64,000 bases of DNA from an uncultured Bdellovibrionales bacterium. GTDB taxonomy: Bacteria > Patescibacteriota > Minisyncoccia > Moranbacterales > UBA1568. The stretch's first letter is position 1; every line of letters starts with the position of its first letter. The translations under genes and the position numbers were made by a program. The stretch lies in NCBI GenBank assembly GCA_964530135.1, contig CAZGXN010000002.1:67308-131307 (forward strand), in the 5' to 3' direction. The notes under the pieces are model-generated. The model saw only the letters and a program-made list of their open reading frames with translations. It was not told where the DNA came from and ran no database searches. Positions 487 to 63,088 of this stretch are shown here, in pieces.

Positions 487-495
487 GAGGAAATA

Positions 496-957: not shown

Positions 958-974
958 ATCAACACGGTCTGCAT

Positions 975-1289: not shown

Positions 1290-1371
1290 ACATTCTTATA
1301 CTCAACGATTACATATACTCTATAGTAGACTTTTGGTGATAAAAAAGCAAAAGGTATGACGATATTCATCA

Positions 1372-1668
1372 TCATACCTCACGACCAGTTTCGATAACCT
1401 GGGTAATCGAATCTGGACAGGCGATTTGAACCTGAGCAAAAGACTCATGGTTCAAGGGGGTGATGCTCTTTGTTTGGGGTGCTATCGCCGGGCCTGGTGC
1501 CACCTCTGAAACACCTTCAGCCTCTATTTCAGCGATGATTCTCTGGCCGAGCATGACGAGCGCTTGACCGAGCGCACGCTGATCTCCATCCTGACTCTTT
1601 TGGAGAATCTCTGCCAACTCATCTGCCCAACGCCACTGACGGATGAGGTCATCATAGCGACTCAACAT
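1372..1668 (-). CDS. Hypothetical protein; likely starts at the internal MLSRYDD.
   Basis: ORF 1372..1722 sits between trxA and lepA with no recognisable family; start chosen to avoid crowding the lepA stop. Confidence 0.35.
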   Translation of the reverse strand: MLSRYDDLIRQWRWADELAEILQKSQDGDQRALGQALVMLGQRIIAEIEAEGVSEVAPGPAIAPQTKSITPLNHESFAQVQIACPDSITQVIETGREV

Positions 1669-1740
1669 ATATACCTCCAGAAGAAGATTGTAAAAGAAGC
1701 CTCCCCACCCTAATGGACACAAGAATTTTTGTCAAAAGAA

Positions 1741-3615: not shown

Positions 3616-3631
3616 ACTGAAGATAGCGCCA

Positions 3632-5296: not shown

Positions 5297-5314
5297 GATA
5301 AATTACTCCTCTTC

Positions 5315-8559: not shown

Positions 8560-8564
8560 AGTAA

Positions 8565-9269
8565 TTACACAGATGGTTCGACTGATCCGAGGGATGCTTG
8601 GCTATTCATTGAAAAGATAAAGAGTGCCTCTGCTGCGAGGATCTGAAAAACACCAGTTTCTTCAAGACGGTTCTTCATTTTATGAAATACGATAAAGGCT
8701 GCCACTCCCCTGACATCTTCTGGTGAACGCACGAACGAAAATTTCCCCTCTTCCCACAAGTATTTTTTGGTATCCAGGAGATACCGCCCATCAAAATTTT
8801 TCATGACCTCATAGTGTTTCCCATCCCCGACCTCATAGCGCTCGAGGATTGAATTGTCTCCGAGAGCAACAAAATAGAGTGCGACACAATTGGATCGAGC
8901 GAGGAGTTGTATCGCATCAATAATTGGGTCATACAATGCCTGCCCCTGCAATGCTGATACCTTCGACTGTGGCAACGATACCACCATGTTCTTCACGATA
9001 TCGATCCGCCGATTCATCTCGCCGATATACGAATACGATTGAGAGAGATCTTTCCGAATCTGATTGGCCTCTTGTTGCAATGAGAGTTTTTCTCGAACCG
9101 CTCGCAAGAATGCAGACTCTTTACCGAGATACAGAAGCAATCCAGCAATACCAAAGCAAAATATCAATAGCGATTCGAGATCTTCCTCGTTAAAAAACAA
9201 GATACCATCTTGTACGAATTCGGGCGTTACAATCATGCATACGAACAAGATGAGGTATATCCAATACAT
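8565..9269 (-). CDS. Hypothetical membrane protein (2 predicted TM plus a ~230-aa cytoplasmic coiled-coil-containing domain); start placed at the internal MYWIYL to avoid overlapping galU.
   Basis: ORF 8565..9491 overlaps the galU 3' end by ~200 nt; the internal Met just after the galU stop gives a clean start. Confidence 0.4.
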   Translation of the reverse strand: MYWIYLILFVCMIVTPEFVQDGILFFNEEDLESLLIFCFGIAGLLLYLGKESAFLRAVREKLSLQQEANQIRKDLSQSYSYIGEMNRRIDIVKNMVVSLPQSKVSALQGQALYDPIIDAIQLLARSNCVALYFVALGDNSILERYEVGDGKHYEVMKNFDGRYLLDTKKYLWEEGKFSFVRSPEDVRGVAAFIVFHKMKNRLEETGVFQILAAEALFIFSMNSQASLGSVEPSV

Positions 9270-9282
9270 GTTTTCGTTTTTA

Positions 9283-10170
9283 TCACGAAGGCCGAAGTGT
9301 TTTGAGATAGGACCGGAGTTTGTCGCCAACCTCAGGGTGTTGCAAGCCGAAATGAATGGTCGCCTTGATAAAATTGAATTTATCGCCCGTATCAAGCCAT
9401 TCGCCGGAAAGCTTCCTTCCATACAGCGGTTTCCCCTGCTCCAACATCGCATCAAAAGCGTCCGCCAAACGAATCTCACCACTCTTTCCATGCTTCATCG
9501 AAGCTAACACTCGAAATACTTCAGGGGTAATGATGTATTTCCCAACTGCCACGAGATTGGATGGTGCGGCTTCAAGTGTTGGCTTTTCGATAATGCCCTT
9601 TACTTCATACGTCATATCATCGAGGGGAATACCGTCGATCACGCCAAACTTTGACACCTCTTCTGGAACGACTTCGGATAAGCCGATGACCGGATCGTGA
9701 TATTTCTCATAAGTCTCAATCAACTGTCGAGATGCCGGAATCGCTGAATCATATAGACAGTCACCGAAAATCACGAGGACGCTTTCATCATCATCTACGA
9801 GATGTGCGGCCTGAAGCAGCGCATGACCATCACCGAGAGGCACTGGTTGTCGGACATAGGAAAACTTTGCCAAACCGGAAATTTTTTGAACCGCCTCGAG
9901 AAGCGCGTGTTTGTTTTTCTCAACAAGCGTATCTTCAAGTTCATAAGAAACATCGAAATGATCTTCGATAGCCCGCTTCCCGCGACCAGTAACAAAAATA
10001 ATTTCTTCGATACCCGATGCCACTGCCTCTTCGACGAGATACTGAATGACTGGTTTATCGACGATGGGGAGCATTTCCTTTGGCTGAGCTTTCGTTGCTG
10101 GTAAGAAACGAGTCCCAAACCCAGCAACCGGAAGAATTGCTTTTTTTACTGAGCGGTATTGATCATGCAT
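9283..10170 (-). CDS. galU: UTP--glucose-1-phosphate uridylyltransferase.
   Basis: AILPVAGFGTRFLPATKAQPKEMLPIVDKPVIQY... N-terminus and length 295 aa typical of GalU. Confidence 0.9.
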   Translation of the reverse strand: MHDQYRSVKKAILPVAGFGTRFLPATKAQPKEMLPIVDKPVIQYLVEEAVASGIEEIIFVTGRGKRAIEDHFDVSYELEDTLVEKNKHALLEAVQKISGLAKFSYVRQPVPLGDGHALLQAAHLVDDDESVLVIFGDCLYDSAIPASRQLIETYEKYHDPVIGLSEVVPEEVSKFGVIDGIPLDDMTYEVKGIIEKPTLEAAPSNLVAVGKYIITPEVFRVLASMKHGKSGEIRLADAFDAMLEQGKPLYGRKLSGEWLDTGDKFNFIKATIHFGLQHPEVGDKLRSYLKTLRPS

Positions 10171-27886: not shown

Positions 27887-28222
27887 TTAGCGCTCTTTTT
27901 TCCTGGCACCAGCAAATAAGTCTCGGCTCGTTTCTGTAACCGCTGTATGCCTCTGACGATCTTGATCAAGGTTTTCCAAAACTTCAAGAAATTTCTTTTC
28001 CTGAAAAGCTGTTTCTTTCGCCGTCGTTTCGAGATAAGCCCTCCGTTCACTCTCTGTCCATTGATAACGATACAAATCACGATTCCACTGATACATCAAA
28101 AAACCTGTCAGACCAAGGAAAAGTAAGCTAAAGAGGAGACGGTAGTGACGCATCCAAAAATAGAGCCCTCGCTTCCGAGCCGATGCAAACGATATTCGAT
28201 TTAAAGAAAATTTTATAGTCAT
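27887..28222 (-). CDS. Hypothetical small bitopic protein at the distal end of the pilus locus.
   Basis: Start at the internal MTIKFS; one TM (LLFSLLFLGLTGFLMY) plus a charged coiled-coil tail. Confidence 0.35.
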   Translation of the reverse strand: MTIKFSLNRISFASARKRGLYFWMRHYRLLFSLLFLGLTGFLMYQWNRDLYRYQWTESERRAYLETTAKETAFQEKKFLEVLENLDQDRQRHTAVTETSRDLFAGARKKER

Positions 28223-28223
28223 G

Positions 28224-28988
28224 TTAGTCTTGTATGTATACGACTGTTTCCAATACCGCATCCAACTGATCAGTTTTTGGCATCGGGGGAGGAGTAACGC
28301 TTTCAGGCAATTCCCCAAAAGGATTGAATGTCCCCGCTCCGGAGGAAACCCGATCACCTTCTTCTGGCTGAACCTTTATGTCTAAACTAATCACATCCAA
28401 CGCATAGGGAAGCGTCTCAAGATGCCGTAAATAACGGATAATCATCCCATATTCGCCTGAGACGGTCATCGTTAATTTCAAGAATTTTTTCAGTGGCAAT
28501 TCAGCAATAATACCGGTTCCCTTATCAGTGCCCCCACCCTTCTTGACTGGTGCAACCGAATCTTCTGTCTCTTTTTCTCCCGAAACTGGTTGCTTGGATC
28601 CATTTGCCTTTTCCTTTTCATTGACAATCGTTACCTTACTCTCGAGAAAAGCATTGTCGCGAGATTCGATCTTGATAGTCACACCATCAGCTAAAGCCTG
28701 CTGTTCAAGCGTTTCGATAAAATCGACCAACCGCTCTTTCGTGAGGATAATATTCAACCGATCTTTTTGCTCGCTGATGAGCGCATGTTGAGCCTCGAGT
28801 TCAGGCAAACGCTCAAGCTGCTTCTCCCGATACTCCCGAATCACGGAGAGTTTCTGGATATCATCCATTTTTATCTGAATAGTCGTGAGCAGCGGGCGAA
28901 TGCCAAACCAGGCAATCAGACAAATAATACCCAAGAGAATGCCTTGCATAACTATCGGTTTCATTTTTTCCCACATTGGATTCGACAT
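28224..28988 (-). CDS. pilO: Type IV pilus assembly protein PilO-like.
   Basis: Start at MSNPMWEKMK; N-terminal TM, coiled coil, C-terminal globular domain; position after pilN. Confidence 0.55.
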   Translation of the reverse strand: MSNPMWEKMKPIVMQGILLGIICLIAWFGIRPLLTTIQIKMDDIQKLSVIREYREKQLERLPELEAQHALISEQKDRLNIILTKERLVDFIETLEQQALADGVTIKIESRDNAFLESKVTIVNEKEKANGSKQPVSGEKETEDSVAPVKKGGGTDKGTGIIAELPLKKFLKLTMTVSGEYGMIIRYLRHLETLPYALDVISLDIKVQPEEGDRVSSGAGTFNPFGELPESVTPPPMPKTDQLDAVLETVVYIQD

Positions 28989-28992
28989 AGCA

Positions 28993-29556
28993 TTAGGACT
29001 GAATGAGACACTCTTTTTTGAGTTTAAAATCGACCTGAAAATCAACTTCTTTTTGTGAGAAAAGATTAGAAATAGGGACCCGCACATCACTCACACACCC
29101 CTCCTCTTTCAACGCATTTTCGAAACGGAGAAATTGTTCCCGAATTTCGGCCTGACCAATGATGGAAACCGTGTAGTCCTTGGTTGTAATACGCACAATA
29201 ACAACTCCATCCGGGGTAAGTTTGTGAAGTAATTCTGGCAGAACGCTCCAGCGGAGGTGTGCCTTCTGATACCGACTGACACTGTCTGTTTGCATATTTA
29301 TTTTCTTGAACTCCTCCTGATATGCAACGAGTTTCTTGGCCTCCTCACTAAACTGCTCAAATGTAGAGAGTCCTTCGCGCCCGACATTTTCCTGATACTT
29401 CAGGATTGTATAGATTCCTCCCAACATCGCAACATAATAGAGCTCGAGCAATAAAATAAGCGTCGTTTGCCACAAAAAGAAACGACTGCGAAATTTTCGC
29501 ACCAAAGCCTCCTTCTTCAACTCTGGTAAAACATTAAGTAAGATCTTCATATTCAT
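28993..29556 (-). CDS. pilN: Type IV pilus assembly protein PilN-like.
   Basis: ~190 aa, N-terminal KILLNVLPELKKEALVRKFRSRFF... plus TM, typical PilN. Confidence 0.6.
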   Translation of the reverse strand: MNMKILLNVLPELKKEALVRKFRSRFFLWQTTLILLLELYYVAMLGGIYTILKYQENVGREGLSTFEQFSEEAKKLVAYQEEFKKINMQTDSVSRYQKAHLRWSVLPELLHKLTPDGVVIVRITTKDYTVSIIGQAEIREQFLRFENALKEEGCVSDVRVPISNLFSQKEVDFQVDFKLKKECLIQS

Positions 29557-30628
29557 CGAGGCCCCGAAGTGCGAGACCAATAGCGGTTGAGTACTGTACC
29601 GAATGCCCTCGATCGATAGGTGGGAGTGTTCGCCCCAGTCTGATATTCACCCAAGGATTGCCAAACTCTATGGATTGATTGAGCCGTTTTGTGAGGTATG
29701 GCAGGAGACCTTTCATGTTTGAACCGCCGCCACATAAGACAATATTATCAATCGTAGCTGAATATCCAAGATTATTCAGATAAAAATTCGTCGAACGCTC
29801 GATCTCAATAGCCAGATTCTCAAGGATCGGTTGAGCAGCCTTAAAAAGTGGGCTCTTCATAGCGAGTGAACCAAGTCCGTATTTTATTTTCATTGCCTCT
29901 GCCTCCTCGAATGGGACGCGCATTTCTTTTGAAATAGCATCGGTGATCATTTGCGAAGACAATGGAACACTTGAGGTGAAGCATGGCGTATGACCAATCG
30001 CCACGAGAAAACTTGTCCGTCGATCACCAATATCCACAATGAGGCGAGTTTTATCTTCATCTTTGTCGAGCAACAGACTCCGCGCCTGAGCAATCGACTC
30101 TGTCTCCAGACCAACCACTTCAAGGCCAACTTTCTCAAGTACGGTGTAAATCTGATCCACCATTGAACGGGCAACTGCTACCACGAGCACACTCATTTTA
30201 TTTTTCTCCTTAACAAGTTTTTTGTCCAAAATTTGGTAATCATAGTACACCTGATCAAGTGTCAGTGGAATATTGGCTTCAATTTCCCATTTGATAGCTT
30301 CTTTGGCTTCATCGGGCGACATGATTGGCAGTGAGACCACCCGAAGGAAAGCTTTCGTTTCCGGTAGTGAACAAATTACTTCCCGGGTCTTGATGGGTCT
30401 CGGTATCGTCTTATTCAAAAGATCTTTGAGAGACTGCACGACCACAGCTTCATTAATAATGTCTCCATCAACGATACTTCCGATGGCCAGCGGGACCGAG
30501 CCAAAACTCGAAACAACATCTGTCTTCCCCTCACGCTCTAGCCAAACGGCTTTGATAGAGAGGTCAGACAAGTCCAGACCAAACGGTTGGGGAAAGAGAT
30601 CAAATATCTTCTTCCGAAATAAATTCAT
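29534..30628 (-). CDS. pilM: Type IV pilus assembly protein PilM (actin-like ATPase fold).
   Basis: MNLFRKKIFDLFPQPFGLDLSDLSIKAV... PilM N-terminus, ~365 aa, FtsA-like. Confidence 0.7.
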   Translation of the reverse strand: MNLFRKKIFDLFPQPFGLDLSDLSIKAVWLEREGKTDVVSSFGSVPLAIGSIVDGDIINEAVVVQSLKDLLNKTIPRPIKTREVICSLPETKAFLRVVSLPIMSPDEAKEAIKWEIEANIPLTLDQVYYDYQILDKKLVKEKNKMSVLVVAVARSMVDQIYTVLEKVGLEVVGLETESIAQARSLLLDKDEDKTRLIVDIGDRRTSFLVAIGHTPCFTSSVPLSSQMITDAISKEMRVPFEEAEAMKIKYGLGSLAMKSPLFKAAQPILENLAIEIERSTNFYLNNLGYSATIDNIVLCGGGSNMKGLLPYLTKRLNQSIEFGNPWVNIRLGRTLPPIDRGHSVQYSTAIGLALRGLDEYEDLT

Positions 30629-30752
30629 ACTGAATTTTTGGTGTCTTGATGTTTTTATTACCAAACCGGTCGAGCGAGAGGTGTTTTCATTTCCGAACGA
30701 AGTACCAGCGAAATGAGAAGCGCTTCACCAGACATCTCAGGAAACAAATAAC

Positions 30753-30795
30753 CCACACAAACAGAACGCTCCTCACAACACACGATTCATGAGTG
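30753..30795 (-). terminator. Inverted repeat between the pilX-like and pilM genes (terminator or attenuator candidate).
   Basis: acagaacgctc...gagtgttctgt 11/12 IR; on the minus strand it is followed by a T-rich ttgtgtgggttatttgtttcc. Confidence 0.3.
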
Positions 30796-30821
30796 TTCTG
30801 TTTCTATCATAGCATGCACCA

Positions 30822-32240
30822 TTACAGTTCTTCCCACAAATCTAATTCATACTGAGTCCCAGCTGGAAAGAAAGGGGGCGGACAATACATAAGATTATTA
30901 TCATAAAACAGATTGCGAGTGATATAACCCGATACATGATTCCCTGAGATATCCGCCCAGGCGAAACCATAACGCTGATTGCTCGCGATCGCGCCGTACA
31001 CGGTGATCGCATCACGGATAGCATATGGACCTGTATAGTTGGCTCGACCGACCCGCCCCGATTGAGCAATCAAGGCCGCATCGATCCGCAGAACATTATT
31101 ACTTTGGCGATAGACTTCGACATCCTGTTGTCCAATCAGGCCAATCATATCAGTACAGTCATAGTTGGTGTATCGGACATCTTTACCCAAATACATGGTT
31201 TTCTTAGCGGCTGAAATGAGATTGGCCGCGACGACCGTCACGCGTTTCCCACTAACCGTCCCTTCGAGCCACACATTGTTTTCTACGTAAATTATACCGT
31301 TGTTGGGGATAGTATAGCTCGACCAACCACCCGAATAATTATTGATTTCATTGGTCGAAGCATTGAAACTCTGGACCGTCCGGATATCAAATGTGTCATT
31401 GGCCTTGAGTATAATATGCCGTCCTTGGTTCGTATTATCAAAGTAGAGGCTTCCATTCGTACCCGCCTGCGCCTCCGTCTTCATGAAGCTCAGATCTGCC
31501 AATACACCACTAAAATCTGCAGTGCCAACTGGAAAGGAGCGTCCTGCCTCAAAAACCGTCGGAACATCAGGTACCGCCGTCGGTGGCAGAGGATCAACTG
31601 GATTGTGTGTGTGTACTCCAAACTCATTTGATCCCAGATGATCAGGATCATTGTAATCAGAAACCGCACTCGAAACAGTATTGTGTGCCAAGCCATCAAA
31701 ACGGATACCGTAGTTTGAATGAATCCTTCCAAAGACTTCTGTGCCCGCTCCAAATCGAATATAATCATTTGCCAAAACACTATATTCGCTCCAAGAAGGA
31801 CGGCGCAGTCGAGCCTGAATCGTCCGTTGAACAGTCGGAAATTTGTATGTCCACCCCGTTGATTTTACCGTTACGCTCGTATACCCTGTTTCCGGAGGTA
31901 TGACTTCGAGACGATACCGGCCAATGACGCCCCCGCTCGGATCAGAATAATCGCTCTCATACGCTGTACCAACACCATAGGCGCTCCCGCCACTCCAAAA
32001 GGCTTCGATCTGTGCGGCTGTTTTCCCTTCAACATTATGAGCGAGATACCAACGATAGAAATCAATACCCGCCTCAGCGATCTGAAATGACTGCTCACGG
32101 GAACGGATCTGGAGCGTATATTGGATATTGGATGAGACATACTGAACAATCGAGACAAGGATGATCTGCACGACCGCCATGATGACCAAGCCGTAGACAA
32201 GTGCACTGCCTGATTGCCGCCGTTGCATACTGTTTATCAT
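30822..32240 (-). CDS. Large pilus-associated protein with a PilX-N-like N-terminal hydrophobic segment.
   Basis: MQRRQSGSALVYGLVIMAVVQIILVSIV... resembles the PilX N-terminal domain; 472 aa, β-rich Ser/Thr/Asn/Gly-rich body. Confidence 0.5.
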   Translation of the reverse strand: MINSMQRRQSGSALVYGLVIMAVVQIILVSIVQYVSSNIQYTLQIRSREQSFQIAEAGIDFYRWYLAHNVEGKTAAQIEAFWSGGSAYGVGTAYESDYSDPSGGVIGRYRLEVIPPETGYTSVTVKSTGWTYKFPTVQRTIQARLRRPSWSEYSVLANDYIRFGAGTEVFGRIHSNYGIRFDGLAHNTVSSAVSDYNDPDHLGSNEFGVHTHNPVDPLPPTAVPDVPTVFEAGRSFPVGTADFSGVLADLSFMKTEAQAGTNGSLYFDNTNQGRHIILKANDTFDIRTVQSFNASTNEINNYSGGWSSYTIPNNGIIYVENNVWLEGTVSGKRVTVVAANLISAAKKTMYLGKDVRYTNYDCTDMIGLIGQQDVEVYRQSNNVLRIDAALIAQSGRVGRANYTGPYAIRDAITVYGAIASNQRYGFAWADISGNHVSGYITRNLFYDNNLMYCPPPFFPAGTQYELDLWEEL

Positions 32241-32866
32241 AGTGACTTGAGATTACGAAGGTCTGCAAACGATTCTATGTTGATATTATTCGGTGCCTTA
32301 ATCGGGTCGATATTCATCCGAATGAATACTCGCACCAGTCGGACATCTTCAATCGCGATTGGTGTCGGGATAGGATTGTTTACCGTATCCCCGGGATAAT
32401 TTTCATTATAGTAATAAAAGAGAGGTTCGGTTGACTCATTCACAATGTAATCTGCGAGTACCGTCGTCGTCCCATCACCCGCCGCATAGGTCGGTGGCTG
32501 AGTCGAGGACGGTTCTCGCACCCCGCGCATCAATCGATCATTCGTCGCATCCAACCAATAGTGAACGCGTTCGGTGACACCGTCATTATCAATATCCAAA
32601 TACACCTGTAAATCAAAATCGTCTCCGGACTCGACTGGATAGTCGCCATTATCCGCTTGGCGTACTTTCCGTAAATTCTTGATGATGTCGCTTGAAGCCC
32701 GATTAACCTGTATCGCTGTTACGCCTGTTTCCAAGATAAATTTATTGCTTTTCCAACTGCTGGAAAAGAGGAGTGTGAAACCGAGCATTCCCGCAGCCAT
32801 GATAAAAATCGCCACGATCATTTCGATCAGCGTCAATCCTCTCAAGCGTTTCCGATAAATTCTCAT
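32237..32866 (-). CDS. Type IV pilin-like protein (prepilin-type N-terminal cleavage/methylation domain).
   Basis: MRIYRKRLRG|LTLIEMIVAIFIMAAGML... class-III signal with Glu at +5. Confidence 0.7.
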   Translation of the reverse strand: MRIYRKRLRGLTLIEMIVAIFIMAAGMLGFTLLFSSSWKSNKFILETGVTAIQVNRASSDIIKNLRKVRQADNGDYPVESGDDFDLQVYLDIDNDGVTERVHYWLDATNDRLMRGVREPSSTQPPTYAAGDGTTTVLADYIVNESTEPLFYYYNENYPGDTVNNPIPTPIAIEDVRLVRVFIRMNIDPIKAPNNINIESFADLRNLKSL

Positions 32867-32882
32867 AGTCAGAAATACTATT

Positions 32883-34262
32883 TTATAGACTCATGGGCAC
32901 AGCGAGTGACTCTAGTCCGGAGGAAACTGTAACTGTTCCATTTTGTGTCGTATACCCAGTTGCCGTAATCGCATAATCATAGGTAGCCGCAACGAGTCCG
33001 GGCGTTGCAGTCGCGGGGAGATAGGCTTTCCCGTAAAGACTCGTCGTTACTGTCTCATCATACACAAGTGTGGTATTGGTGAGCCGGACAGATGCGCCAC
33101 TAATCGGTGTTCCATCTGTCGCATTTGTTACAGTGAAAAGCACGCCATTCACCGCTGTATCGGCCAGAATCATCTCGACAGTCTTCGTCGTATTCGGAGA
33201 AAGATCAATAGTATTCCCGCTCGCCGCCGATTCAGGATTGAGCCGCACAAAACGATACCCCGTTTCACCACTATCCAGGGTCCAGGTATAGCTTCCAGAG
33301 CTCCGGTTTTCATATTCCCGCTCTCCACTTCCATTCGTCGCCGCATCCTCTCCAAAATCATAGACTGGCACACCCGTTCCAAAGTTCGTCCCGAGCTGTC
33401 GGCCACCATCAATCCGATAGTCAATATTTGGAACCATAACACCAAAAGGGTCTTCTGTCTGAAGTCGCAGCGTCGAAGAATAGTCCATCACAAAGGATGT
33501 CTGATTCACCACACTATCCACTACCGAAGCATGTACATCCGTCGGAACAAAGGTCGTCGTTGGATAGGGTGCGTAGGTGGCACTCCCAAAGTATCCAGAT
33601 TTTGAAAAGGTTATCCGGTAATTTTGAACACTCGCTGGTGCCCCAACAAAAAAGAGATTGCCAGATGCATCCGTAGTAGCCGTCACATCAACCGCTGGGG
33701 TTACTGCGCTGTTGACGACGCGTACCGTCGCACCAGAGACGCCATTACCCTGTGAGTCGAGGATATTGATAGAAAGAGTGCCACCACCCGCAGGTTGCTC
33801 TACCCCCAAGGGAGAGAAGGTAGAAAAAAGCGCCACTTTTTCAGCATCACTCTCGCTCCCCCACGCGACTTCGACACGAACGCGCTTATAATCGTTCGGA
33901 ACGGCATCGTTCGGGCTCCCGCTCAATGTGCCATCATACGCATCATCCACATACTGGACAAACGTGTGCACCTGATACACAGAGTTGTTTACCGGAACGG
34001 TCTCATTTTCTTGTATATCACCCGCTGGAATACCTGAAACTGTCCCTATAGCCTCATAGCTAAGACTCCGCACAATCTCCATTTTCTGATTTGCCAGAGC
34101 AATCGCTCCCAAACGATATTTTGATTGTTGGATCAACGCCGTGCTGTACGCAAATGTCTGAAAGAAAACCGCTGTGATAAGCGAAAAAAGAAATAAAAAG
34201 ACCAAGCCCTCAATCAGGGTAAATCCCGAGAGGTGGCGTCGTACTGTGCCGATACCTAACAT
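32883..34262 (-). CDS. Large type IV pilin-like protein (prepilin N-terminus plus ~420-aa Thr/Ser/Gly-rich body).
   Basis: RRHLSG|FTLIEGLVFLFLFSLITAVF... canonical GFTLIE prepilin motif. Confidence 0.7.
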   Translation of the reverse strand: MLGIGTVRRHLSGFTLIEGLVFLFLFSLITAVFFQTFAYSTALIQQSKYRLGAIALANQKMEIVRSLSYEAIGTVSGIPAGDIQENETVPVNNSVYQVHTFVQYVDDAYDGTLSGSPNDAVPNDYKRVRVEVAWGSESDAEKVALFSTFSPLGVEQPAGGGTLSINILDSQGNGVSGATVRVVNSAVTPAVDVTATTDASGNLFFVGAPASVQNYRITFSKSGYFGSATYAPYPTTTFVPTDVHASVVDSVVNQTSFVMDYSSTLRLQTEDPFGVMVPNIDYRIDGGRQLGTNFGTGVPVYDFGEDAATNGSGEREYENRSSGSYTWTLDSGETGYRFVRLNPESAASGNTIDLSPNTTKTVEMILADTAVNGVLFTVTNATDGTPISGASVRLTNTTLVYDETVTTSLYGKAYLPATATPGLVAATYDYAITATGYTTQNGTVTVSSGLESLAVPMSL

Positions 34263-34270
34263 AGGGAGGG

Positions 34271-35494
34271 TTACTTGATATTTTCGAGCACACTATACAT
34301 CGGCTGCAACATCGCAACCGCAAAAAATCCGACTGTACTTCCGATCAGGAGCATAAGAATCGGTTCGATAATGGATGACATATTTTTTGTAATCTGAGAG
34401 ACTTCTTCTTCATAAAATTCTGCGAGACGCTGAAGAACATTTTCTGTTTTTCCTGTTTCTTCACCAACCTGGATAATCTGAGGAACAAGAATCGGGAAGA
34501 TGCTTGGGTATTGACCGATGATTTTTGAAAGCTCGGTCCCCTTTTGAATTTCTTCAATCCCTTTCATTAATGCCTCTCGATAGTAAACGTTGCCCAATGT
34601 CCGTGAGACGATGGTCAATGCGGTAACCACTGAAATACCACTCTTTAAAAGTGAACTATAAATGCGGGCAAAACGAGCGCAATTCACCTTAATGACGATA
34701 CTACCGATAATGGGCATCCGCAGTATTATCCAATGAAGCATATGCCTCCCCGCATCAGTTTTTGACAGAATCCGAAACCCGACTGCTGACCCGATGACAA
34801 TCCCGAGGGTCAGAATCCAATGCGTCCGGATAAAATCCGACAGATTGATGATAAACTGAGTCGTCGCCGGCAGCTTCACTTCCATATCGATGAAGACCTG
34901 TGTAATCTTTGGTAGGATGTATGTCAGCATAAGAATACCGATACCGATCATTGCGACGACGATCACGGCCGGATAAATCATTGCTCCACGCACCTTCGAA
35001 AGCAAATCATTCTCTTTTTCAAGCTGCAGCGCCAGGATGTCAAGAATCTCCTCCAAATTACCTGAGATCTCTCCAACCGAAATCATGCTGACGAAAAGCT
35101 CATTAAACACGCTCGGGTACTTGGCCAACCCCTCGGAGAGCTGCTTACCTGCCTGGACATCATCATGGACACTTTGCAGGATTTTTTGAAAGCGACGATT
35201 GCTCGTCTGCAAGGAAAGATTGTGGATGGCTCGCGATACCGTCAAGCCAGACGATGTCATGACGGCGAGGTTACGAGTAAAAACCATCTTTTCCTTCAAC
35301 GGAACCGTCATGAATCGCTCAAGGAACTTGACTTGAGTTCCCTCTGACGCTTCTTCAATACACTTTATTGATGTAACCAAAAAACCCTGGGTTCGGAGCT
35401 CTTGTCCGACCTGGTTCTCATCTTTGCCGACAATTTCTCCACCCTTCGTTTCACCAGTAGAGATATTCTTGGCTGTATACAAATACTTCGGCAT
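34271..35494 (-). CDS. pilC: Type IV pilus platform protein PilC (GspF family).
   Basis: 407 aa, duplicated GspF domains, 3 TM, N-terminus MPKYLYTAKNISTGETKGGEI... typical PilC. Confidence 0.85.
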   Translation of the reverse strand: MPKYLYTAKNISTGETKGGEIVGKDENQVGQELRTQGFLVTSIKCIEEASEGTQVKFLERFMTVPLKEKMVFTRNLAVMTSSGLTVSRAIHNLSLQTSNRRFQKILQSVHDDVQAGKQLSEGLAKYPSVFNELFVSMISVGEISGNLEEILDILALQLEKENDLLSKVRGAMIYPAVIVVAMIGIGILMLTYILPKITQVFIDMEVKLPATTQFIINLSDFIRTHWILTLGIVIGSAVGFRILSKTDAGRHMLHWIILRMPIIGSIVIKVNCARFARIYSSLLKSGISVVTALTIVSRTLGNVYYREALMKGIEEIQKGTELSKIIGQYPSIFPILVPQIIQVGEETGKTENVLQRLAEFYEEEVSQITKNMSSIIEPILMLLIGSTVGFFAVAMLQPMYSVLENIK

Positions 35495-35543
35495 GGCCGT
35501 TTCGTTGGTGTTTCTTTTCCTCTAGTATAGCATGCAGAAAAAT

Positions 35544-36470
35544 CTACGATACCAAGAGGCCGTGCACAGCCAGACGCTCCTTGAAACGATCGAAGACAGC
35601 TGGGCCCTTGGGACACGGCAAAAAAATAAGTGCCTGATCATTTGCAACGATAAAAGCGCCGGGTGTCTGAGATTTTGGGTTTTGTTCGATTTTTTTCTTC
35701 TGCCAGGAAGATAACTTCACTTCCCACCCCTCCCAAGAAAAAAGCTGTTCCAGCAAAAGACGCAGTTTCAGTTGAAGGCGAGATGCTGAATGCAACCAAA
35801 AATTCGGCAATGTCGTGGGCTGATAGGTTGGCTTCAATCGGGCCATCCAGCGATTAGCCAGCTCGAAATGCCGTTCGGTGTCCCGCCCAACCAGCGTGTA
35901 CATGAAACGATACTCGCTGGCAGAAAAATAATCCTGCATCGCAATTTCCAAACTTGCATCGGTAATAAAATAATTGAGACAAGCCCGATTCTCAACGTAA
36001 CGGCCATGCCGACGCTTACCAAAAAGCTGAAGTACCAGTGATAATGCCGTTCGACCACGCCAAATGGCACCGCCTGAGAGCACAACGAAGAAGTCCCAGT
36101 CACTCTCATGATCACCTCGTTTCATCGAGAGGCTACCTGTCAATGCGATCATCCGTACAAAGGGAACCCAAGCCAATTTCCAGGCCAGCGCGGCCGCACG
36201 ACGAATCTTGGGTACAGCATACTTTTCGCTCCGAATCCGAGCTGACACCAGAAGCTCACGCTGCGGCAATATGAGAAATCCACTCAAACGAGTAATCGCC
36301 CCAAGGGCTACAAGACCATCAAGTACACCCGAAACCTGCCCCAGTGTCGGAGCTTCTGACGATACTTCATCGTGAGTCGCGATGAGGTGCTTCCACACCT
36401 CAAACGCAGTCATCGGATAATCCAACGCATCATAGTAGACGATTGTTGCCAGAACTGTTTTTCGCAACAT
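35544..36470 (-). CDS. Hypothetical protein with nucleotidyltransferase-fold (Pol-beta-like) signature.
   Basis: ...TGSLSMKRGDHESDWDFFVV... fits hG[GS]-x9-13-[DE]h[DE]h; 308 aa, no P-loop; immediately upstream of pilC. Confidence 0.4.
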   Translation of the reverse strand: MLRKTVLATIVYYDALDYPMTAFEVWKHLIATHDEVSSEAPTLGQVSGVLDGLVALGAITRLSGFLILPQRELLVSARIRSEKYAVPKIRRAAALAWKLAWVPFVRMIALTGSLSMKRGDHESDWDFFVVLSGGAIWRGRTALSLVLQLFGKRRHGRYVENRACLNYFITDASLEIAMQDYFSASEYRFMYTLVGRDTERHFELANRWMARLKPTYQPTTLPNFWLHSASRLQLKLRLLLEQLFSWEGWEVKLSSWQKKKIEQNPKSQTPGAFIVANDQALIFLPCPKGPAVFDRFKERLAVHGLLVS

Positions 36471-36482
36471 ATAGTCGTACCG

Positions 36483-39290
36483 CTACAGATACTTCCCCGT
36501 AAAACTTGTTTTCACCTTCTTGAGTTTTTCGGGAATCCCCGCGTACACCACTTGTCCACCCCGTTCCCCGCCTTCAGGACCCATATCGATTACCCAGTCT
36601 GACGCACGAATAACATCTATGTTGTGCTCGACGACCAACACGGTATTTCCTTTATCGACAAGTGCATTTAAAACCTCAAGCAGTCGCCGCACATCTTCGA
36701 AGTGAAGACCAATAGTCGGTTCATCGAGGATATACAGTGTCTTCCCAGTTGATTTTCGGGCCAGCTCCGTGGCCAGCTTGATGCGCTGAGCTTCACCACC
36801 TGAGAGATTGGGTGCACTCTGCCCCAAAACGAGATATCCCAGGCCGACTTCCTCCAAGACCCGAAGTTTCTCTTCAATCATCGGCTGGTCGAGAAAGAAA
36901 TGCCGCGCTGCCGAAACAGTCAGTCGCAGCACTTCAGAAATATTCATCCCCCGATACTGAATCGCCAATGTTTTCGCATTGTAACGCGTCCCATTACAGA
37001 CTTCACAAGGAATATAGACATCTGGTAAGAGATACATCTCGATCTTTTTCAATCCACCACCCTGACAGACTTCACATCGCCCACCGCGCATATTAAAACT
37101 AAAATAAGACGCCGAGTACCGTTCCTTAACGGCTTCAGGTGTCGCGGCAAATACATCTCGAATAAGACTAAAAATACCGGTATAGGTTGCCGCATTGGAA
37201 CGCGGTGTTCGGCCAATAGCATCCTGAGTAACCGTGATTACTTTATCGATATGCTCAATCCCACGCAACGCAGTATGTTTACCTGGGTCAGTTCGAGCCT
37301 GGTAGAAATGTCGGGACAAGGCTCGAGAGAGAATATCATGCACGAGTGTGGATTTGCCCGAACCAGAAACACCAGAAACCGCAACAAATTTTCCGAGCGG
37401 GATTTCAACGGTTACCGCTTTCAAATTGTGTTCCGTTGCACCCTCGATAGAAAGCGACTTCCCCGAACCCGTGCGGAGTGTGTCACGCTTCATAACCAAG
37501 CGTTTGCCTGAGAGGTATTGGCCCGTGAGGAGTTTTGATTTCATGAGTTTTTCCGGTGTACCCGAAAAAATAATCTCACCGCCTTCCCGACCGGCACCCG
37601 GGCCAAGATCAATAATCCAATCAGCTTTCCGCATAATTGCTACATCATGTTCGACCACGACGAGAGAATTATTGGCACCCCGCAGTTCCTCCAATGCTCG
37701 AATAAGCCGGTCCGTATCGCGACTATGCAGTCCAACCGAGGGTTCGTCGAGGACATAGATAATACCTGAAAGTCCCGACTTAATTTGGACGGCCAGTCGA
37801 ATACGCTGCGCTTCACCACCCGAAAGTGTATCCGCACTCCGCGAAAGTGAGAGGTAGCCGAGACCGACCTTGTCAACCGCCATCAGGCGCATCTCCATTT
37901 CATTAAACAATGGTTCTACCAGAGATTTTTCCTCACCATCCGAAAGGAGTTTGGATCGCAAATCTTTGAAAAATATCCGAAGATCCTCAATCGAGCGATC
38001 AACAAAAGCATTGATATTTTTGTCTGCAATATAGACCGAGAGCGATTCGGGGCGGAGTCGCTTCCCCTCACAATCCGAACAGCGCCGCATAAACATAAAA
38101 GTCTCAATCTCGGCGCGCAGATGATCCGACTTCGTCTCACGATATTTTCGTTCGAGCAAACCAAGCACCCCGGGAAATCCAAATTCATCCGTTGGATCAC
38201 GCCGAGCATCACCCCGAAGAATGTATTCTCGCTCTCGCGCTGTCAATTTTTTTACTGGGACATCCAGCGATATTTTCTCACGCTTGGCCATCTCCCGAAA
38301 CAGTGTCATTGGACCATTGCCATTTCCCCGATCACTATTCATCTTGCTCCAGGGACGGATAGCACCCTCAGCGATCGAAAGTGTATCATTTGGGATAACG
38401 AGCGCTGGATCAAATTCGAGTGTCACGCCCAAACCACCACAGGTCGGACAGGCACCCTCGGGACTATTGAATGAAAAGTGGGCTGGTGAAAACTCGGGGA
38501 GCTCAATCAAACAAGTTTCACACCGATACCGCTCGTGATAATTATGAAAATGCCGACCATCAACAAACAGGCGCATAACTCCCTGACCCGTCTGAAACGC
38601 CGTATGGATCGAATCAAGCAAGCGTTCTTTGTCCGGACGCACTGAATCAAGAGTTAATCGGTCAATAATGACGAGACAATTCGCCGGTGCGGCTGGATCA
38701 ACGCGATTCTTAAGCTCCGCTAGCGAAATCGCCGTTTCAGCGTACCAGACTCGAACGAAACCCCAATCATCAATGAGATCCATAGCTTGCTGCCAGGTCT
38801 TTCCGATAAGTAAGGGGCTTTCCGCAGCCAGCACCAATTGCGACCCGCTCGGCAATGTGAGAATCTCATTCAGAATTGTTACGGCTGTCTTGCGTGAGAG
38901 CGTCTGATCACACTTCGGACAATGGGGCTGACCAACTTTTGCAAAGAGCAATCGGAGGTAGTCATACACCTCAGTCATAGTTCCGACCGTCGAACGCGGA
39001 CTGCGCGACACGCTCTTCTGATCAATCGAGATAGCCGGCGAGAGATTACGAATCGTATCGACATCCGGCTTGTCATAGCCCTCCATGAAATTTCGGGCAT
39101 AGGCCGAGAGGCTCTCAACATAGCGCCGATTCGCTTCAGCGTACAAGGTATCAAAAGCCAATGATGATTTTCCTGACCCCGAAAGTCCCGTAACGACGAC
39201 CAGGCAATCACGTGGAATATCAATATCCACATTCTTTAAATTGTTTACCCGGGCCCCGCGAATCTCGATGACGCTCTTTTTTCCAGGCAT
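36483..39290 (-). CDS. uvrA: Excinuclease ABC subunit A (canonical, with insertion domain).
   Basis: 935 aa, two ABC modules, [17 protein letters not shown], three Zn modules (CPKC/CETC, CPTC/CSDC, CEVCQG). Confidence 0.95.
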
Positions 39291-39396: not shown

Positions 39397-40707
39397 TTAT
39401 CCCTGAAGAAATTGCGCGCGTTTTTTCTTGCGATGAAAACGGATCGCGAAACGATGCGCCTCGGCATTGGCCAAGAGGATGTCTTTCTCGAACCGTTTGA
39501 CTAACCCGCGCGGCCCGATGATGTGATCCGGCTGGTGCTTGGCATTCTTCACGACACCAACGACCGGAATCGTCAGTCCCTTCTTCTTTAAAATCCGAGT
39601 GGCCACATCCGACTGCAGGAGTGCCCCGTCAACAACCATGAGTTCGGGGAGTATCCATTCACTATGTGCCAGACGACGAGTCAGGATTTCCTCCAAAGCT
39701 GATAGGTCATTGCCACCGTGAGCGTTGCGCAATGTGAACAGTCGATACTCACTCTTCTTGGCCAGGGCGTGCTGCACGACAGTCATGACACCAACGGTCG
39801 CCTCACCCTGGAGATGCGCCGTGTCATAGGCCTCGATCCGTGCGGCCGAGCTTTCCTCACGATCAAGCTTCATGAGTGCGACATCACGAATATGCCCGAG
39901 ATCGAAGAGGAGTCGTTTGATCTCGTTCGCTTTTTCAAACCGCAATTCCTTCGCCGCGACTTTCATTTCACGCTCTAGATTCTTCACGAGATCTACTTTC
40001 TTGCCGCTGAAGAAGAGTACGATCCGTTTCACAGTCTTCCGATAGTCGACCGCTGAGACCGTACCGACGCAGACACCCGGGCATCGGCCGATCTGTGCTT
40101 GAAAGCATGGCCGTGCTTTTTTCTTCTGTTCATCTGTAAGTTCAGCGTACGGTACACATTTGTCGCGGTACGGAAAGATCTGCCGCACAATCTTGAGTGC
40201 CGTCCGGAGTGCTTCCCCACGCGTATACGGGCCGAACCGCTCCTTAATTGGTGCCGTGAACTTCCCCGTCTCGATATCACGCTCGCGAACAAGGAGGACG
40301 CGCGGAAAATCTTCTTTCGTGATGACAACGAAATTATAGCTCTTGTCGTCCTTGGCATCGGTATTGTAGGGCGGCTGATGCTTCTTGATGAGCTGCCCTT
40401 CGCGAAGAAGTGCTTCGAGGATAGAGTCGAGCGGGATCCAGGCAATCGCAACGGCTCGTTCCAGCATAAGGACGAGCTTCGGCCCGCGCGTCTCGGCCAA
40501 ATCAGGACCGAAATAACTCTTCACACGATCCGACAAAATGGTTGCCTTGCCAATATAGAGAATTTCATCACCCGCCCCAAGAAAAAAGTACACGCCCGGC
40601 ATTTCGGGCAGTCCCGCCAACAACGCCAGAAGTGCAACTCTTGCAGACTGGGTGTTTTCCTTGCGGAGGCTCGCAATACTAATTTTCTTCTCCCAGGGAT
40701 GGATCAT
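39397..40707 (-). CDS. uvrC: Excinuclease ABC subunit C, short form lacking the C-terminal (HhH)2 domain.
   Basis: GIY-YIG (GVYFFLGAGDEILYIGKATILSDRVKSY), Cys-rich CFQAQIGRCPGVC, UVR-like RFEKANEIKRL, RNase-H-like RIEAYDTAHLQGE; ends without an HhH2 segment. Confidence 0.8.
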   Translation of the reverse strand: MIHPWEKKISIASLRKENTQSARVALLALLAGLPEMPGVYFFLGAGDEILYIGKATILSDRVKSYFGPDLAETRGPKLVLMLERAVAIAWIPLDSILEALLREGQLIKKHQPPYNTDAKDDKSYNFVVITKEDFPRVLLVRERDIETGKFTAPIKERFGPYTRGEALRTALKIVRQIFPYRDKCVPYAELTDEQKKKARPCFQAQIGRCPGVCVGTVSAVDYRKTVKRIVLFFSGKKVDLVKNLEREMKVAAKELRFEKANEIKRLLFDLGHIRDVALMKLDREESSAARIEAYDTAHLQGEATVGVMTVVQHALAKKSEYRLFTLRNAHGGNDLSALEEILTRRLAHSEWILPELMVVDGALLQSDVATRILKKKGLTIPVVGVVKNAKHQPDHIIGPRGLVKRFEKDILLANAEAHRFAIRFHRKKKRAQFLQG

Positions 40708-54986: not shown

Positions 54987-57572
54987 TTACTTTTGACGAA
55001 GTACTGACTTCAGGTAGCGACCCGTATGGGAACCATCGGTCTTGGCGACCATTTCCGGAGTTCCAGTGGCGATAATTTTTCCACCACCCGAGCCACCTTC
55101 CGGTCCGATATCGATGATATAATCCGCTGATTTGATCAGATCCATATTGTGTTCGATGACCATAACGGTATTGCCCTTCACCACCAGCCGATCAAGGATC
55201 TCGATGAGTTTTCTCACATCGGCATAGTGGAGCCCAATCGTCGGCTCATCAAGGAGGTATATAGTCCGTTCAGTCGACTGACGATACAGCTCGGAAGCGA
55301 TCTTCACACGTTGGGCTTCACCGCCCGAGAGTGTTGTCGCAGACTGGCCGAGCTCAAGATAACCAAGCCCAACTTCATTTAAAGTCTTCAATCGATCAGC
55401 AATGGCCGGAATCGCATAGAAAAATGTATACGCATCCTCAATAGTCATCGAGAGTACTTGGTGAATATTCTTCCCCTTGTAGGTTACTTCGAGAGTTTCT
55501 TTGGTAAACCGCTTGCCATCACAGACATCACAGGGTACATAGACTGTCGGAAGGAAGTGCATTTCAACGGCAATAAAACCATTCCCTTCACATGTCTCAC
55601 AACGGCCACCCGGACGATTGAATGAAAAACGGCCCAATTTCCAACCCCGAACCCGAGCCTCTTCTGTCGAGGCAAACAGGTCTCGAATATGATTGAAGGC
55701 ACCCGTATAGGTCGCCGGATTCGAACGCGGCGTGCGGCCGATGGGGCTTTGGTCAATCATCACGACGCGTGAGAGATATTCTGTTCCCGTAAAAGTATCA
55801 CAGTGTTCAACCTGATGTGTCTTGTATCGGCGATCGAGACGGCCCTGGAGATTCCGGTGAACGATCTCATACAGAAAGGATGATTTACCCGATCCCGAGA
55901 CACCCGTAACAGCGATAAAACGGCCGAGTGGGATATCGACACTGAGATTTTGAATATTATAAATACGGCCGCCGCGAATCTTCAGACTGCCTTTCTCTTT
56001 GCTTCGGCGTTCGGGAATCGGGATAGACTCCTCACCACGTAAATACGCGAGTGTCAGCGATCCAGATGGGTTCGTCTTTGCAGTCAAAAGGTCCTCAAGA
56101 AAACCCGACACCACAACTTTGCCACCATGCACCCCCGCACCTGGGCCGATATCGACAATAAAATCAGAAGCAAAGATAGTGTCTTCGTCGTGTTCGACGA
56201 TAATAATCGTATTTCCGAGTGCCCGCAGAGACTTCAATGTTTCAATCAACCGTTCATTATCTTTTTGATGAAGGCCAATTGTCGGTTCATCGAGCACATA
56301 CAGTGCCCCAACGAGCTGACTCCCGAGCTGACTCGCAAGCCGGATACGCTGCGCTTCACCCCCCGAGAGCGTATTGGCCCGTCGATCAAGCGTCAGATAG
56401 TTGAGACCAACATTGAGGAGGAACTGGAGCCGGCTACTGATTTCACGCAGCACGACTGAGGCAATCTGTTCCTCACGCTGAGTGAGGCTCAGGGTCGTGA
56501 AAAAATCAAAAGCCCGCGCTGTCGTGAGGCGCGTCAAATCAACGATATTTTGACCACCTAGTTTAATATGAAGCGCTTCCTCACGAAGCCGTGTACCATT
56601 ACACACCTCACATGGCTCTGCTCCAAAAAAATGCTTGGTGCCAAGACCATTACATGCCTGACAAGCGCCCGAGGGTGAGTTAAATGAAAAGAGTCGTGGC
56701 TCGACCTCAGGATAAGAAAATCCATCATACGGGCAAGTAAATTTTGCCGAAAGAAGAAATATTTCGTTACCGATACTTACCTTCACAATACCCTCAGCTT
56801 CTTCGAGCGCTTTTTGAATCGCTTCCGAAAGTCGGATCTCCGTATCATCCTTATAGTCTCGGAAATCTCGCGCGAGGAATTCATCTACAACGAGATCGAT
56901 ATCATGTTTGAAATTCTTCTTTAATACAACTTGCTCGCGGAGACTTTTTCGCTTTCCGTCGAGAAAAATCGAAACAAATCCACGACTGAGTGCGTTGTAT
57001 AACATCTGATAGTACTCGCCCTTTCGACTCCGGACTACCGGCGCAAGGACAATAACCGGTGCCTCAGCTTGATTACGCTCCTCCAAAACAGCGTGAACTT
57101 TTGTTTTCACCGTTTCCAACATTTCTTCCGTCGAGAGCCGTGAGATCTCACGGCCACACTCGAGACAGTGTGGCCGACCGAGTCGAGCGTAGAGGACTCG
57201 AAGGTAATCATAGATTTCGGTCACCGTCGCAACTGTCGAGCGCGGATTCCGACTGGCTGATTTCTGATCAATGGAGATCGCTGGTGAGAGTCCGGTGATT
57301 TCGTCGACATCCGGTTTTTGCATCGTATTCAAAAACTGCCGAGCATATGCCGAAAGACTTTCGACATACCGACGCTGACCCTCAGCGAAAATCGTATCAA
57401 ACGCAAGTGAGCTCTTGCCAGAGCCAGAGAGACCAGTAAAAACGATCATGTGATTCCGTGGCATCTCGACCGTGATGTTTTTTAAATTATGTGTTCGAGC
57501 ACCCTTGACGACGATCCACTCCGATGGACCGGTGAAGGATTTCTGTTTCTTGGATCCCTTTTTTTCAGGCAT
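54987..57572 (-). CDS. UvrA paralog (861 aa) lacking the insertion domain.
   Basis: Same ABC/Zn architecture as uvrA ([17 protein letters not shown], ...); between ACQACNGLG and CEVCNGTRL only ~9 residues versus ~110 in uvrA at 36483..39290. Confidence 0.85.
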   Translation of the reverse strand: MPEKKGSKKQKSFTGPSEWIVVKGARTHNLKNITVEMPRNHMIVFTGLSGSGKSSLAFDTIFAEGQRRYVESLSAYARQFLNTMQKPDVDEITGLSPAISIDQKSASRNPRSTVATVTEIYDYLRVLYARLGRPHCLECGREISRLSTEEMLETVKTKVHAVLEERNQAEAPVIVLAPVVRSRKGEYYQMLYNALSRGFVSIFLDGKRKSLREQVVLKKNFKHDIDLVVDEFLARDFRDYKDDTEIRLSEAIQKALEEAEGIVKVSIGNEIFLLSAKFTCPYDGFSYPEVEPRLFSFNSPSGACQACNGLGTKHFFGAEPCEVCNGTRLREEALHIKLGGQNIVDLTRLTTARAFDFFTTLSLTQREEQIASVVLREISSRLQFLLNVGLNYLTLDRRANTLSGGEAQRIRLASQLGSQLVGALYVLDEPTIGLHQKDNERLIETLKSLRALGNTIIIVEHDEDTIFASDFIVDIGPGAGVHGGKVVVSGFLEDLLTAKTNPSGSLTLAYLRGEESIPIPERRSKEKGSLKIRGGRIYNIQNLSVDIPLGRFIAVTGVSGSGKSSFLYEIVHRNLQGRLDRRYKTHQVEHCDTFTGTEYLSRVVMIDQSPIGRTPRSNPATYTGAFNHIRDLFASTEEARVRGWKLGRFSFNRPGGRCETCEGNGFIAVEMHFLPTVYVPCDVCDGKRFTKETLEVTYKGKNIHQVLSMTIEDAYTFFYAIPAIADRLKTLNEVGLGYLELGQSATTLSGGEAQRVKIASELYRQSTERTIYLLDEPTIGLHYADVRKLIEILDRLVVKGNTVMVIEHNMDLIKSADYIIDIGPEGGSGGGKIIATGTPEMVAKTDGSHTGRYLKSVLRQK

Positions 57573-63043: not shown

Positions 63044-63088
63044 ATCAAGGGGTAAAAAAAGAAAAACAGTCCGATCACACAAATGAAA

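Follow-up and report, generated by a model that had tools for sequence, protein, structure and literature searches.

The question raised by this locus is what kind of machine is specified by a set of type IV pilus genes that includes no secretin and codes for very large pilin-like proteins. The genes lie in a stretch of 64,000 nucleotides (nt) of the contig CAZGXN010000002.1 (assembly GCA_964530135.1, positions 67,308 to 131,307), referred to below as the window. They form a block of nine consecutive open reading frames (ORFs) at window positions 27887-36470, all on the minus strand, which encode in minus-strand order a nucleotidyltransferase (NTase)-fold protein (p308), PilC, the three pilin-like proteins p459, p209 and p472, PilM, PilN, PilO and a bitopic protein of 111 amino acids (aa). 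An earlier reading of this DNA made without database searches, hereafter the sequence-only reading, had listed these nine ORFs, and the ORF listing confirmed all of them, with their coordinates and order. It is likely that the locus encodes the membrane platform of a type IVa-like pilus, together with its priming or tip subunits, and that the cell is a Candidatus Moranbacteria bacterium.

The homologues of p459 and p472 are labelled Candidatus Moranbacteria or Moraniibacteriota. Relatives of p472 occur in at least 583 species-representative genomes, and the best 80 of them are all Moranbacteria. The Moranbacteria are a phylum of the Parcubacteria group within the Patescibacteria, or candidate phyla radiation (CPR), so that the CPR-like envelope suggested from the letters alone agrees with the host. 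Many of the genomes bearing p472 are titled 'uncultured Bdellovibrionales bacterium' (dozens of public bins, L010-L012, L015-L017, L021-L023 and others, at 51-82% identity); these labels on bins with a Moranbacteria locus look wrong.

The eight pilus genes are tightly packed and are kept together as a block. The intergenic gaps measure 8, 16 and 8 nt in the run that begins with pilC and ends with p472, and -17, 4 and 1 nt in the run that begins with pilM and ends with the small gene; the starts used here for pilM (30628), pilN (29550), pilO (28988) and the small protein (28222) are the likely ones by comparison with homologues. The gene pilC (34271..35494, minus strand) encodes an inner-membrane platform protein of 407 aa with two T2SSF domains (Pfam T2SSF, 2.1e-58), which is 71-82% identical to its counterparts in the related loci L001, L002 and L004. 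The gene pilM (29534..30628, minus strand) encodes a cytoplasmic actin-like platform protein, 364 aa long when read from the ATG at 30628, as are its homologues; it matches PilM_2 (1.1e-46) and passes the cut-off of TIGR01175 (182.8 bits, cut-off 133).

PilN and PilO were recognised with more difficulty. The gene pilN (28993..29550, minus strand), which shares its first 17 nt with the end of pilM, encodes a bitopic protein of 185 aa, and pilO (28224..28988, minus strand), read from the ATG at 28988, encodes a bitopic protein of 254 aa. Taken alone, the PilN of the window falls marginally below the Pfam cut-off of PF05137 (3.6e-4), and its family profile matches Myxococcus xanthus PilN (3jc8, E 0.0049). 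Its N-terminus, MKILLNVLPE, is similar to INLLP, which we take to be the PilM-binding motif of PilN, and L5, N6, L8 and P9 are conserved. The PilO of the window has no Pfam match as a single sequence; 11 of the 23 members of its family match PF04350 (best 3.3e-5), GspM is matched at 1.4e-3, and the family profile matches M. xanthus PilO (3jc8, E 0.0027). These similarities point weakly but specifically to PilN and PilO.

The last gene of the block (27887..28222, minus strand), whose ATG lies 1 nt past the pilO stop codon, encodes the 111-aa bitopic protein. It sits where pilP stands in pilMNOPQ operons and was found 3' of pilO in 69 related loci. Profile searches gave no Pfam or PDB relative for it, and we propose that it is a lineage-specific platform accessory.

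Two of the three pilin-like proteins carry a prepilin processing signal. A six-frame scan of the 64 kilobases (kb) for class III signals (G[FL..][ST]L[IV]E with a hydrophobic stretch) gave exactly two, at the N-termini of p459 and p209, and alignments showed that Glu5 is invariant in both families (in 38 homologues for p459). The two canonical signals, G/FTLIE and G/LTLIE, that had been read from the sequence are therefore upheld. The lengths given for the mature proteins, 420 and 190 aa, need correction. The p459 gene (32883..34262, minus strand) encodes 459 aa with the leader MLGIGTVRRHLSG followed by FTLIE, and cleavage after G13 (codon 34224-34226) would leave 446 aa; the p209 gene (32237..32866, minus strand) encodes 209 aa with the leader MRIYRKRLRG followed by LTLIE, and cleavage after G10 would leave 199 aa. 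The enrichment in Thr, Ser, Gly and Asn ascribed to both proteins was found in p459 (35.7%, compared with 17-25% in the neighbouring cytoplasmic proteins) but not in p209 (26.1%).

The larger of the two, p459, matches N_methyl (17.8 bits) and CarboxypepD_reg (4.2e-12); its sequence profile gave nothing significant against solved structures. In the AlphaFold2 (AF2) model, which has a predicted local distance difference test score (pLDDT) of 82, a helix (16-66) and a four-stranded sheet (81-149) are followed by beta-sandwiches at 161-247, 252-342 and 351-457. A Foldseek search with the model returned the Bacillus anthracis TIE protein (2e-15) and, among sortase-pilus subunits, PitA, BcpA and SpaA (1e-6 to 1e-9), the sandwiches matching immunoglobulin (Ig)-like domains of the CnaB/transthyretin type; the global template modelling scores (TM-scores) are low, which is to be expected of a flexible protein with several domains. 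The model thus suggests that p459 consists of a pilin module and three Ig-like beta-sandwich domains. A class III signal and a pilin module fused to non-pilin domains characterise the published class of tip-exposed modular pilins, and with this predicted composition p459 fits that class. More than 120 relatives were found at cluster level, 47-75% identical and all 440-470 aa long.

The gene p472 (30822..32240, minus strand; the public annotation starts at 32228 and gives 468 aa) encodes a protein of 472 aa of the PilX/GspK/ComZ type of tip pilin, without Glu5. Its N-terminus reads QSG/SALVY, with Tyr instead of Glu at +5, and G11, L14 and Y16 are conserved; this region matches PF14341 PilX_N (4e-3) and the GspK-type model NF037980 (2.5e-6). 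In a Foldseek search with the AF2 model (pLDDT 81, predicted template modelling score 0.73), the only PDB matches below 1e-3 were the three ComZ chains of 6qvi (5e-11 to 5e-10), which align over almost the whole length of p472, and ice-binding beta-solenoids came next at 0.01-0.1. The protein is accordingly predicted, on the model, to consist of a GspK-like pilin domain and a large triangular beta-solenoid of the ice-binding type. ComZ, a competence pilin of Thermus thermophilus, has a GspK-like pilin domain into which a solenoid of this type is inserted. Its ligands are DNA and the neighbouring minor pilin PilA2, a place at the pilus tip has been argued for it, and it is required for transformation and not for piliation (PMC6561018). 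A preprint of 2026 reports this combination of pilin and solenoid for all cyanobacterial PilX proteins and proposes that they act as a tip plug (bioRxiv 10.64898/2026.02.12.705559). The features that define this group are thus present in p472 in part: the GspK-like helix without Glu5 is seen in its sequence, the triangular solenoid joined to a pilin fold is seen in the AF2 model alone, and homology to ComZ in sequence was not detected. The family has 2752 matches, of which the best 120 are 59-84% identical. Structure prediction, which the sequence-only reading had advised for the two proteins with canonical signals, gave at the level of models a pilin module with Ig-like domains for p459, and it gave a ComZ-like fold for p472.

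The spacer between p472 and pilM (30629-30821, minus strand) is 193 nt long here and about 65 nt in the related loci L001, L002 and L004. Within it a hairpin, ACAGAACACUC...GAGCGUUCUGU, precedes a U-rich run. A terminator or structured RNA at this place was not supported, as the spacer folds no better than shuffled sequence (z = -0.15), and promoter and terminator scans were uninformative.

The prepilin p209 is of more ordinary size: with 199 aa in the mature form it is not far above a normal pilin, and the statement that its mature part is far larger than typical major pilins does not stand. It passes the cut-off of N_methyl (21.9 bits), matches TIGR02523 PilV below the cut-off (5.7e-5), and its profile found no match among solved structures. 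In its family Glu5, D91, D95 and E99 are invariant, and the conservation of D93 and G96 is 90% or more. Residues 91-99 (32570-32596, minus strand) form a DIDNDGVTE loop with the EF-hand-like pattern DxDxDGxxE, which we take to be that of the PilY1 calcium site, and the loop is possibly a calcium site. In all probability p209 is a minor pilin of the PilV type that has p472 as its partner.

That p209 is instead the major pilin, which would make the operon, together with the pilB adjacent in some relatives, nearly self-contained and p459 and p472 its sole minor pilins, is in our judgement unlikely. Its canonical signal with Glu5 and its mature size would suit such a role, 199 aa being within the size range of type IVb major pilins. 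The about 88 related loci show no other prepilin-type ORF up to 10 kb from the block, their few short matches being truncated copies of p459 or p209, and no further prepilin was found in the window by eye, by motif scan or by tblastn. Against this stand the composition and the setting of p209. Its content of Gly, Ala, Ser and Thr (24.6%) equals that of cytoplasmic proteins, compared with 39.5% in mature p459, whereas major pilins are usually enriched in these residues (PMC11623550); its best family match, a weak one, is to the minor pilin PilV; it is flanked by two tip-type pilins that are equally conserved; and CPR bacteria keep their major pilins in separate loci (PMC11623550). The homologue of p459 or p209 is split into two ORFs in some bins (L063 7896-9306; L050 at about 7991 and 9380), which could be due to a frameshift or an assembly error.

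The three proteins are best read as minor pilins, of the tip or priming kind, and not as oversized major pilins. The sequence-only reading had measured two of them against typical major pilins; the large ones are better placed among minor pilins of the known modular kind.

The search for the remaining components covered the window and 10 kb past each end (84 kb). As had been stated for the locus itself, no secretin PilQ, no T2SSE ATPase (PilB or PilT) and no prepilin peptidase PilD was found there, and tblastn with a Moranbacteria PilB over the 84 kb gave nothing below E = 6. PilD, PilT and a major pilin were also not found in the flanks of the about 88 related loci. Of the components by which a type IVa system is known, the PilC/GspF platform protein, PilM with bitopic PilN and PilO, and class III prepilins (p459 and p209) were thus found in the window; PilB was not found in the window and flanks and adjoins pilC in about 15 related loci; and PilQ was found neither in the window nor in the related loci. 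It is not surprising that PilQ is absent, because a CPR bacterium has no outer membrane, and its absence does not exclude a monoderm form of the type IVa system. Type IV pili are widespread in CPR bacteria and lack PilQ (PMC6744442). The gene content of the window and its flanks therefore bears out a type IV pilus locus without secretin; to call it unusual is less apt, as both the missing secretin and the splitting of pilus genes between loci are the norm in CPR bacteria (PMC6744442, PMC11623550).

To compare gene order, all proteins of the locus were searched by tblastn against the about 88 related loci fetched. The comparison, which had been suggested as a check, showed that the block p459-p209-p472-pilMNO-small gene is conserved in about 88 loci. 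In the first arrangement, which the window shares with about 65 loci (the complete genome CP064975.1 among them), the order is uvrA - p308 - pilC - p459 - p209 - p472 - pilM - pilN - pilO - small gene - rlmN. The second, seen in about 15 loci, has pilB directly upstream of pilC and, before pilB, the genes of a histidine kinase and a single-domain response regulator; this PilB has 581 aa, a T2SSE match of 1e-131 and an MshEN domain. In one genome (L094) the order runs uvrA - p308 - kinase - regulator - pilB and continues with unrelated genes, and in a distant clade (L081 and L087, positions 1-10000) the series p459-p209-p472-pilMNO has neither pilB nor pilC upstream. The 111-aa bitopic gene is found in the pilB-adjacent arrangement and in the distant L087 as well. 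These arrangements indicate that p459-p209-p472-pilMNO-small gene is the stable core, from which pilC and the kinase-regulator-pilB module are separable.

The kinase (about 311 aa) and the response regulator (about 123 aa) were seen directly before pilB in some Moranbacteria (L063 3466-6579, L092 8468-11773, L094 8524-11749). The three genes travel as one module, and the pair is probably a regulator of pilus extension. L087 has a response regulator and an ORF of 597 aa ahead of the block.

An extension ATPase encoded elsewhere, as the sequence-only reading had assumed, is plausible since pilB is separable in relatives. The related advice to find pilB elsewhere succeeded only for relatives, with about 15 loci in which the gene adjoins pilC and one genome in which it is on its own, and not for this genome; in a PilB-profile search, none of the best 120 matches shared a contig with a locus of the first arrangement. 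These results bear on the possibility that the locus is a decaying remnant whose clade has lost the extension ATPase gene from the operon. In this locus and about 65 related ones the kinase, the regulator and pilB are indeed missing from the place between p308 and pilC, and no pilB was found in the 84 kb. But the eight ORFs are intact in dozens of species, and against four relatives dS (synonymous divergence) is saturated and dN (nonsynonymous divergence) is 0.07-0.35, with omega at or below about 0.1 where computable, which shows that all the genes are under strong purifying selection; L094 moreover carries the kinase-regulator-pilB module alone, so that the modules can live apart. Decay is therefore a very improbable explanation. 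Conservation also bears on the role of the pilins. At a distance at which PilC and PilM are 72% and PilN and PilO 35-42% identical, the three pilin-like proteins are 49-58% identical; they are thus more conserved than would be expected for a major pilin, and core minor pilins fit better.

The type IVa-like pilus proposed here would be assembled as follows. A prepilin peptidase encoded elsewhere would cleave p459 after G13 and p209 after G10. Through their N-terminal helices in the membrane, p472, its immediate upstream neighbour p209 and p459 would form a small complex capped by p472, and this complex would prime filament assembly on PilC and PilMNO. PilB, encoded elsewhere in this genome, would then add a major pilin encoded outside the window, so that p472, p209 and p459 would end up at the tip. 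There the solenoid of p472 and the three-Ig stalk of p459 would bind a ligand, which may be extracellular DNA, a host-cell surface, or both. By analogy with ComZ, DNA would be the best-supported candidate; binding to a host surface, as for the PilX proteins of the Saccharibacteria strain TM7x, would be equally possible (PMC11623550).

Several points weigh against this proposal. The heterotrimer, the tip location and the ligand are drawn by analogy. There are only three minor-pilin-like genes, compared with four in the classical core sets. The TM-score between p472 and ComZ is about 0.3, and a p472 profile built from 40 family members fails to retrieve ComZ 6qvi at E up to 10, so the predicted relation would be one of fold and architecture only. 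The matches of PilN and PilO are thin for the window proteins taken singly, and the major pilin, PilB, PilT and PilD were not found in the window and 20 kb of flanks.

Part of the same evidence could be read as a short pseudopilus of the Com or type II kind, which pulls DNA through the wall or pushes proteins out while no long pilus is made. PilC scores slightly better on the GspF model of NCBIfam (321 bits) than on the PilC models (301 and 288 bits), the N-terminus of p472 is GspK-like, and its predicted fold is that of ComZ, which is needed for transformation and not for piliation (PMC6561018); in addition, no pilT is nearby and dprA lies about 6 kb past the window end. The scores on GspF and ComGB models are, however, all below their cut-offs; PilM, PilN and PilO stand in place of GspL and GspM, with no GspC or GspD, and ComG systems lack PilMNO; and pili have been observed on CPR cells and are functional in Saccharibacteria (PMC11623550, PMC9894109). 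We consider a pseudopilus improbable. ComG and type II secretion proper were each rejected from the gene content. A ComG competence pilus is excluded by the presence of PilMNO, by the ComGB score of PilC (148 bits, cut-off 240, compared with 301 bits on a PilC model) and by ComGE and ComGF matches that are confined to the N-terminal helix, and the possibility named at the outset that the locus might be a known Gram-positive Com pilus has thereby been removed. A type II secretion system is excluded because GspD, GspC, GspL and GspE are absent and the matches to GspF, GspK, GspH and GspM are below cut-offs.

The type IVa-like pilus may be carried one step further, to a tentative and rather doubtful extension. 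All Moranbacteria might share a fixed and unusually large tip, in which a solenoid pilin of the ComZ type would be joined by a pilin with a calcium loop and one with a three-Ig stalk, while a new bitopic protein would stand in the place of PilP. The three pilin-like proteins are strongly conserved, unlike the fast-evolving adhesins of other pili, which within this extension would indicate a universal ligand; the ligand would most likely be extracellular DNA, and the structure would serve auxotrophic cells as a pilus for scavenging DNA or nucleotides.

The ninth gene of the block, p308 (35544-36470, minus strand; also L063 2366-3292, L086 14723-15622 and L093 7179-8102), encodes an NTase-fold protein of 308 aa with the signature GS...SDxD. 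Its family profile matches the minimal nucleotidyltransferase MNT (7ae2, 7e-5), and the family, uncharacterised, comprises 4276 representative clusters. In Moranbacteria p308 always lies directly after uvrA, wherever uvrA lies; the two stay together when the kinase-regulator-pilB module or groEL intervenes, and they do so too in loci that have uvrA downstream of the pilus genes. This linkage across arrangements rules out p308 as a pilus component. It had been counted as part of the pilus locus and is a partner of uvrA instead, and its position hints that it works with uvrA or in DNA repair. Two UvrA paralogues, of 935 aa (36483-39290) and 861 aa (54987-57572), lie with uvrC (39397-40707) and uvrB (60977-63082) within the same 27 kb, all on the minus strand.

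About 55 of the 64 long ORFs of the window are on the minus strand, and the GC skew is negative in every 2-kb bin, which is consistent with a single replichore on which genes are strongly co-oriented. No pilus gene of any kind was seen in the 10 kb past either end of the window. The genes dprA, which encodes DNA-processing protein A and belongs to natural transformation, and topA lie about 6 kb past window position 64000 (L006 1275-4674, about 5.3-8.7 kb beyond the end), on the strand opposite to the adjoining window genes.

A central part in host attachment and DNA uptake is ascribed to the type IV pili of CPR bacteria, and experiments exist only for Saccharibacteria. The locus described here defines a conserved Moranbacteria core in which a small orphan protein accompanies PilMNO and the three pilin-like proteins, and its comparison with relatives shows that pilC and pilB can reside elsewhere in the genome. 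What is new is that, on the evidence of a predicted model, the ComZ/solenoid-PilX architecture of Thermus and cyanobacteria would extend to the CPR, and further that the three pilin-like proteins are unusually strongly conserved and that an orphan protein occupies the PilP position. We found no literature that links ComZ-type pilins to the CPR or describes Moranbacteria pili. Proteins of the p472 type are concrete candidates for the binding of DNA or of a host.

Among known systems, the Firmicutes ComG pilus resembles the one proposed here in being a filament without secretin on a cell without outer membrane that may serve in the uptake of DNA, but it lacks PilM, PilN and PilO and has its ATPase and major pilin in the same operon. 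The sets GspH-I-J-K and FimU-PilV-PilW-PilX likewise combine a GspK/PilX subunit without Glu5 with minor pilins that have Glu5, and the genes here, next to those of the platform, show weak N-terminal matches to GspK, GspH, PilV and GspJ; here there are three members and not four, two of them are far larger, no PilY1 was found, and none of the matches reaches its family cut-off.

Modular pilins occur widely, and CPR phyla supply many of their commonest architectures (PMC8179133). As in the modular pilins PilB and PilC of Streptococcus sanguinis (PMC8179133), p459 has a class III signal and a small pilin module with grafted domains, and exposure at the tip would be expected; unlike them, its predicted graft consists of three tandem transthyretin/CnaB-like Ig domains, a fold of sortase-pilus shafts, and not of a vWA or lectin domain. 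With ComZ/PilA2 (PDB 6qvi; PMC6561018) p472 shares a hydrophobic N-terminal helix without Glu5 and a small minor pilin encoded next to it, and with ComZ and the cyanobacterial beta-solenoid PilX (bioRxiv 10.64898/2026.02.12.705559) the predicted combination of GspK-like domain and triangular solenoid. The differences from ComZ are that no sequence similarity was detected and the TM-score is low (about 0.3), that the Moranbacteria host has no outer membrane, and that its locus has two accompanying minor pilins instead of three and no adjacent major pilin.

The Saccharibacteria pilus of Nanosynbacter lyticus TM7x (PMC11623550, PMC9894109) offers a comparison within the CPR. The TM7x pilus genes are on four loci, and its large PilX tip pilins, which have no PilD signals, are proposed adhesins (PMC11623550). 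Both systems have no secretin, PilC with PilMNO, split loci, large PilX-type minor pilins without a PilD signal and with a proposed place at the tip, and pilins of which some are similar to type II pseudopilins. They differ in phylum, the present one being of the Moranbacteria in the Parcubacteria group; in the accessory domains, which are jelly-roll and beta-propeller in TM7x compared with the solenoid and three Ig-like domains predicted here; in the absence of pilB, pilT and pilD from the Moranbacteria locus; and in conservation, since the TM7x pilins are poorly conserved whereas those described here are 47-84% identical across Moranbacteria. Placed beside these systems, the pilus of this locus is an ordinary one for Moranbacteria and no new kind of machine.

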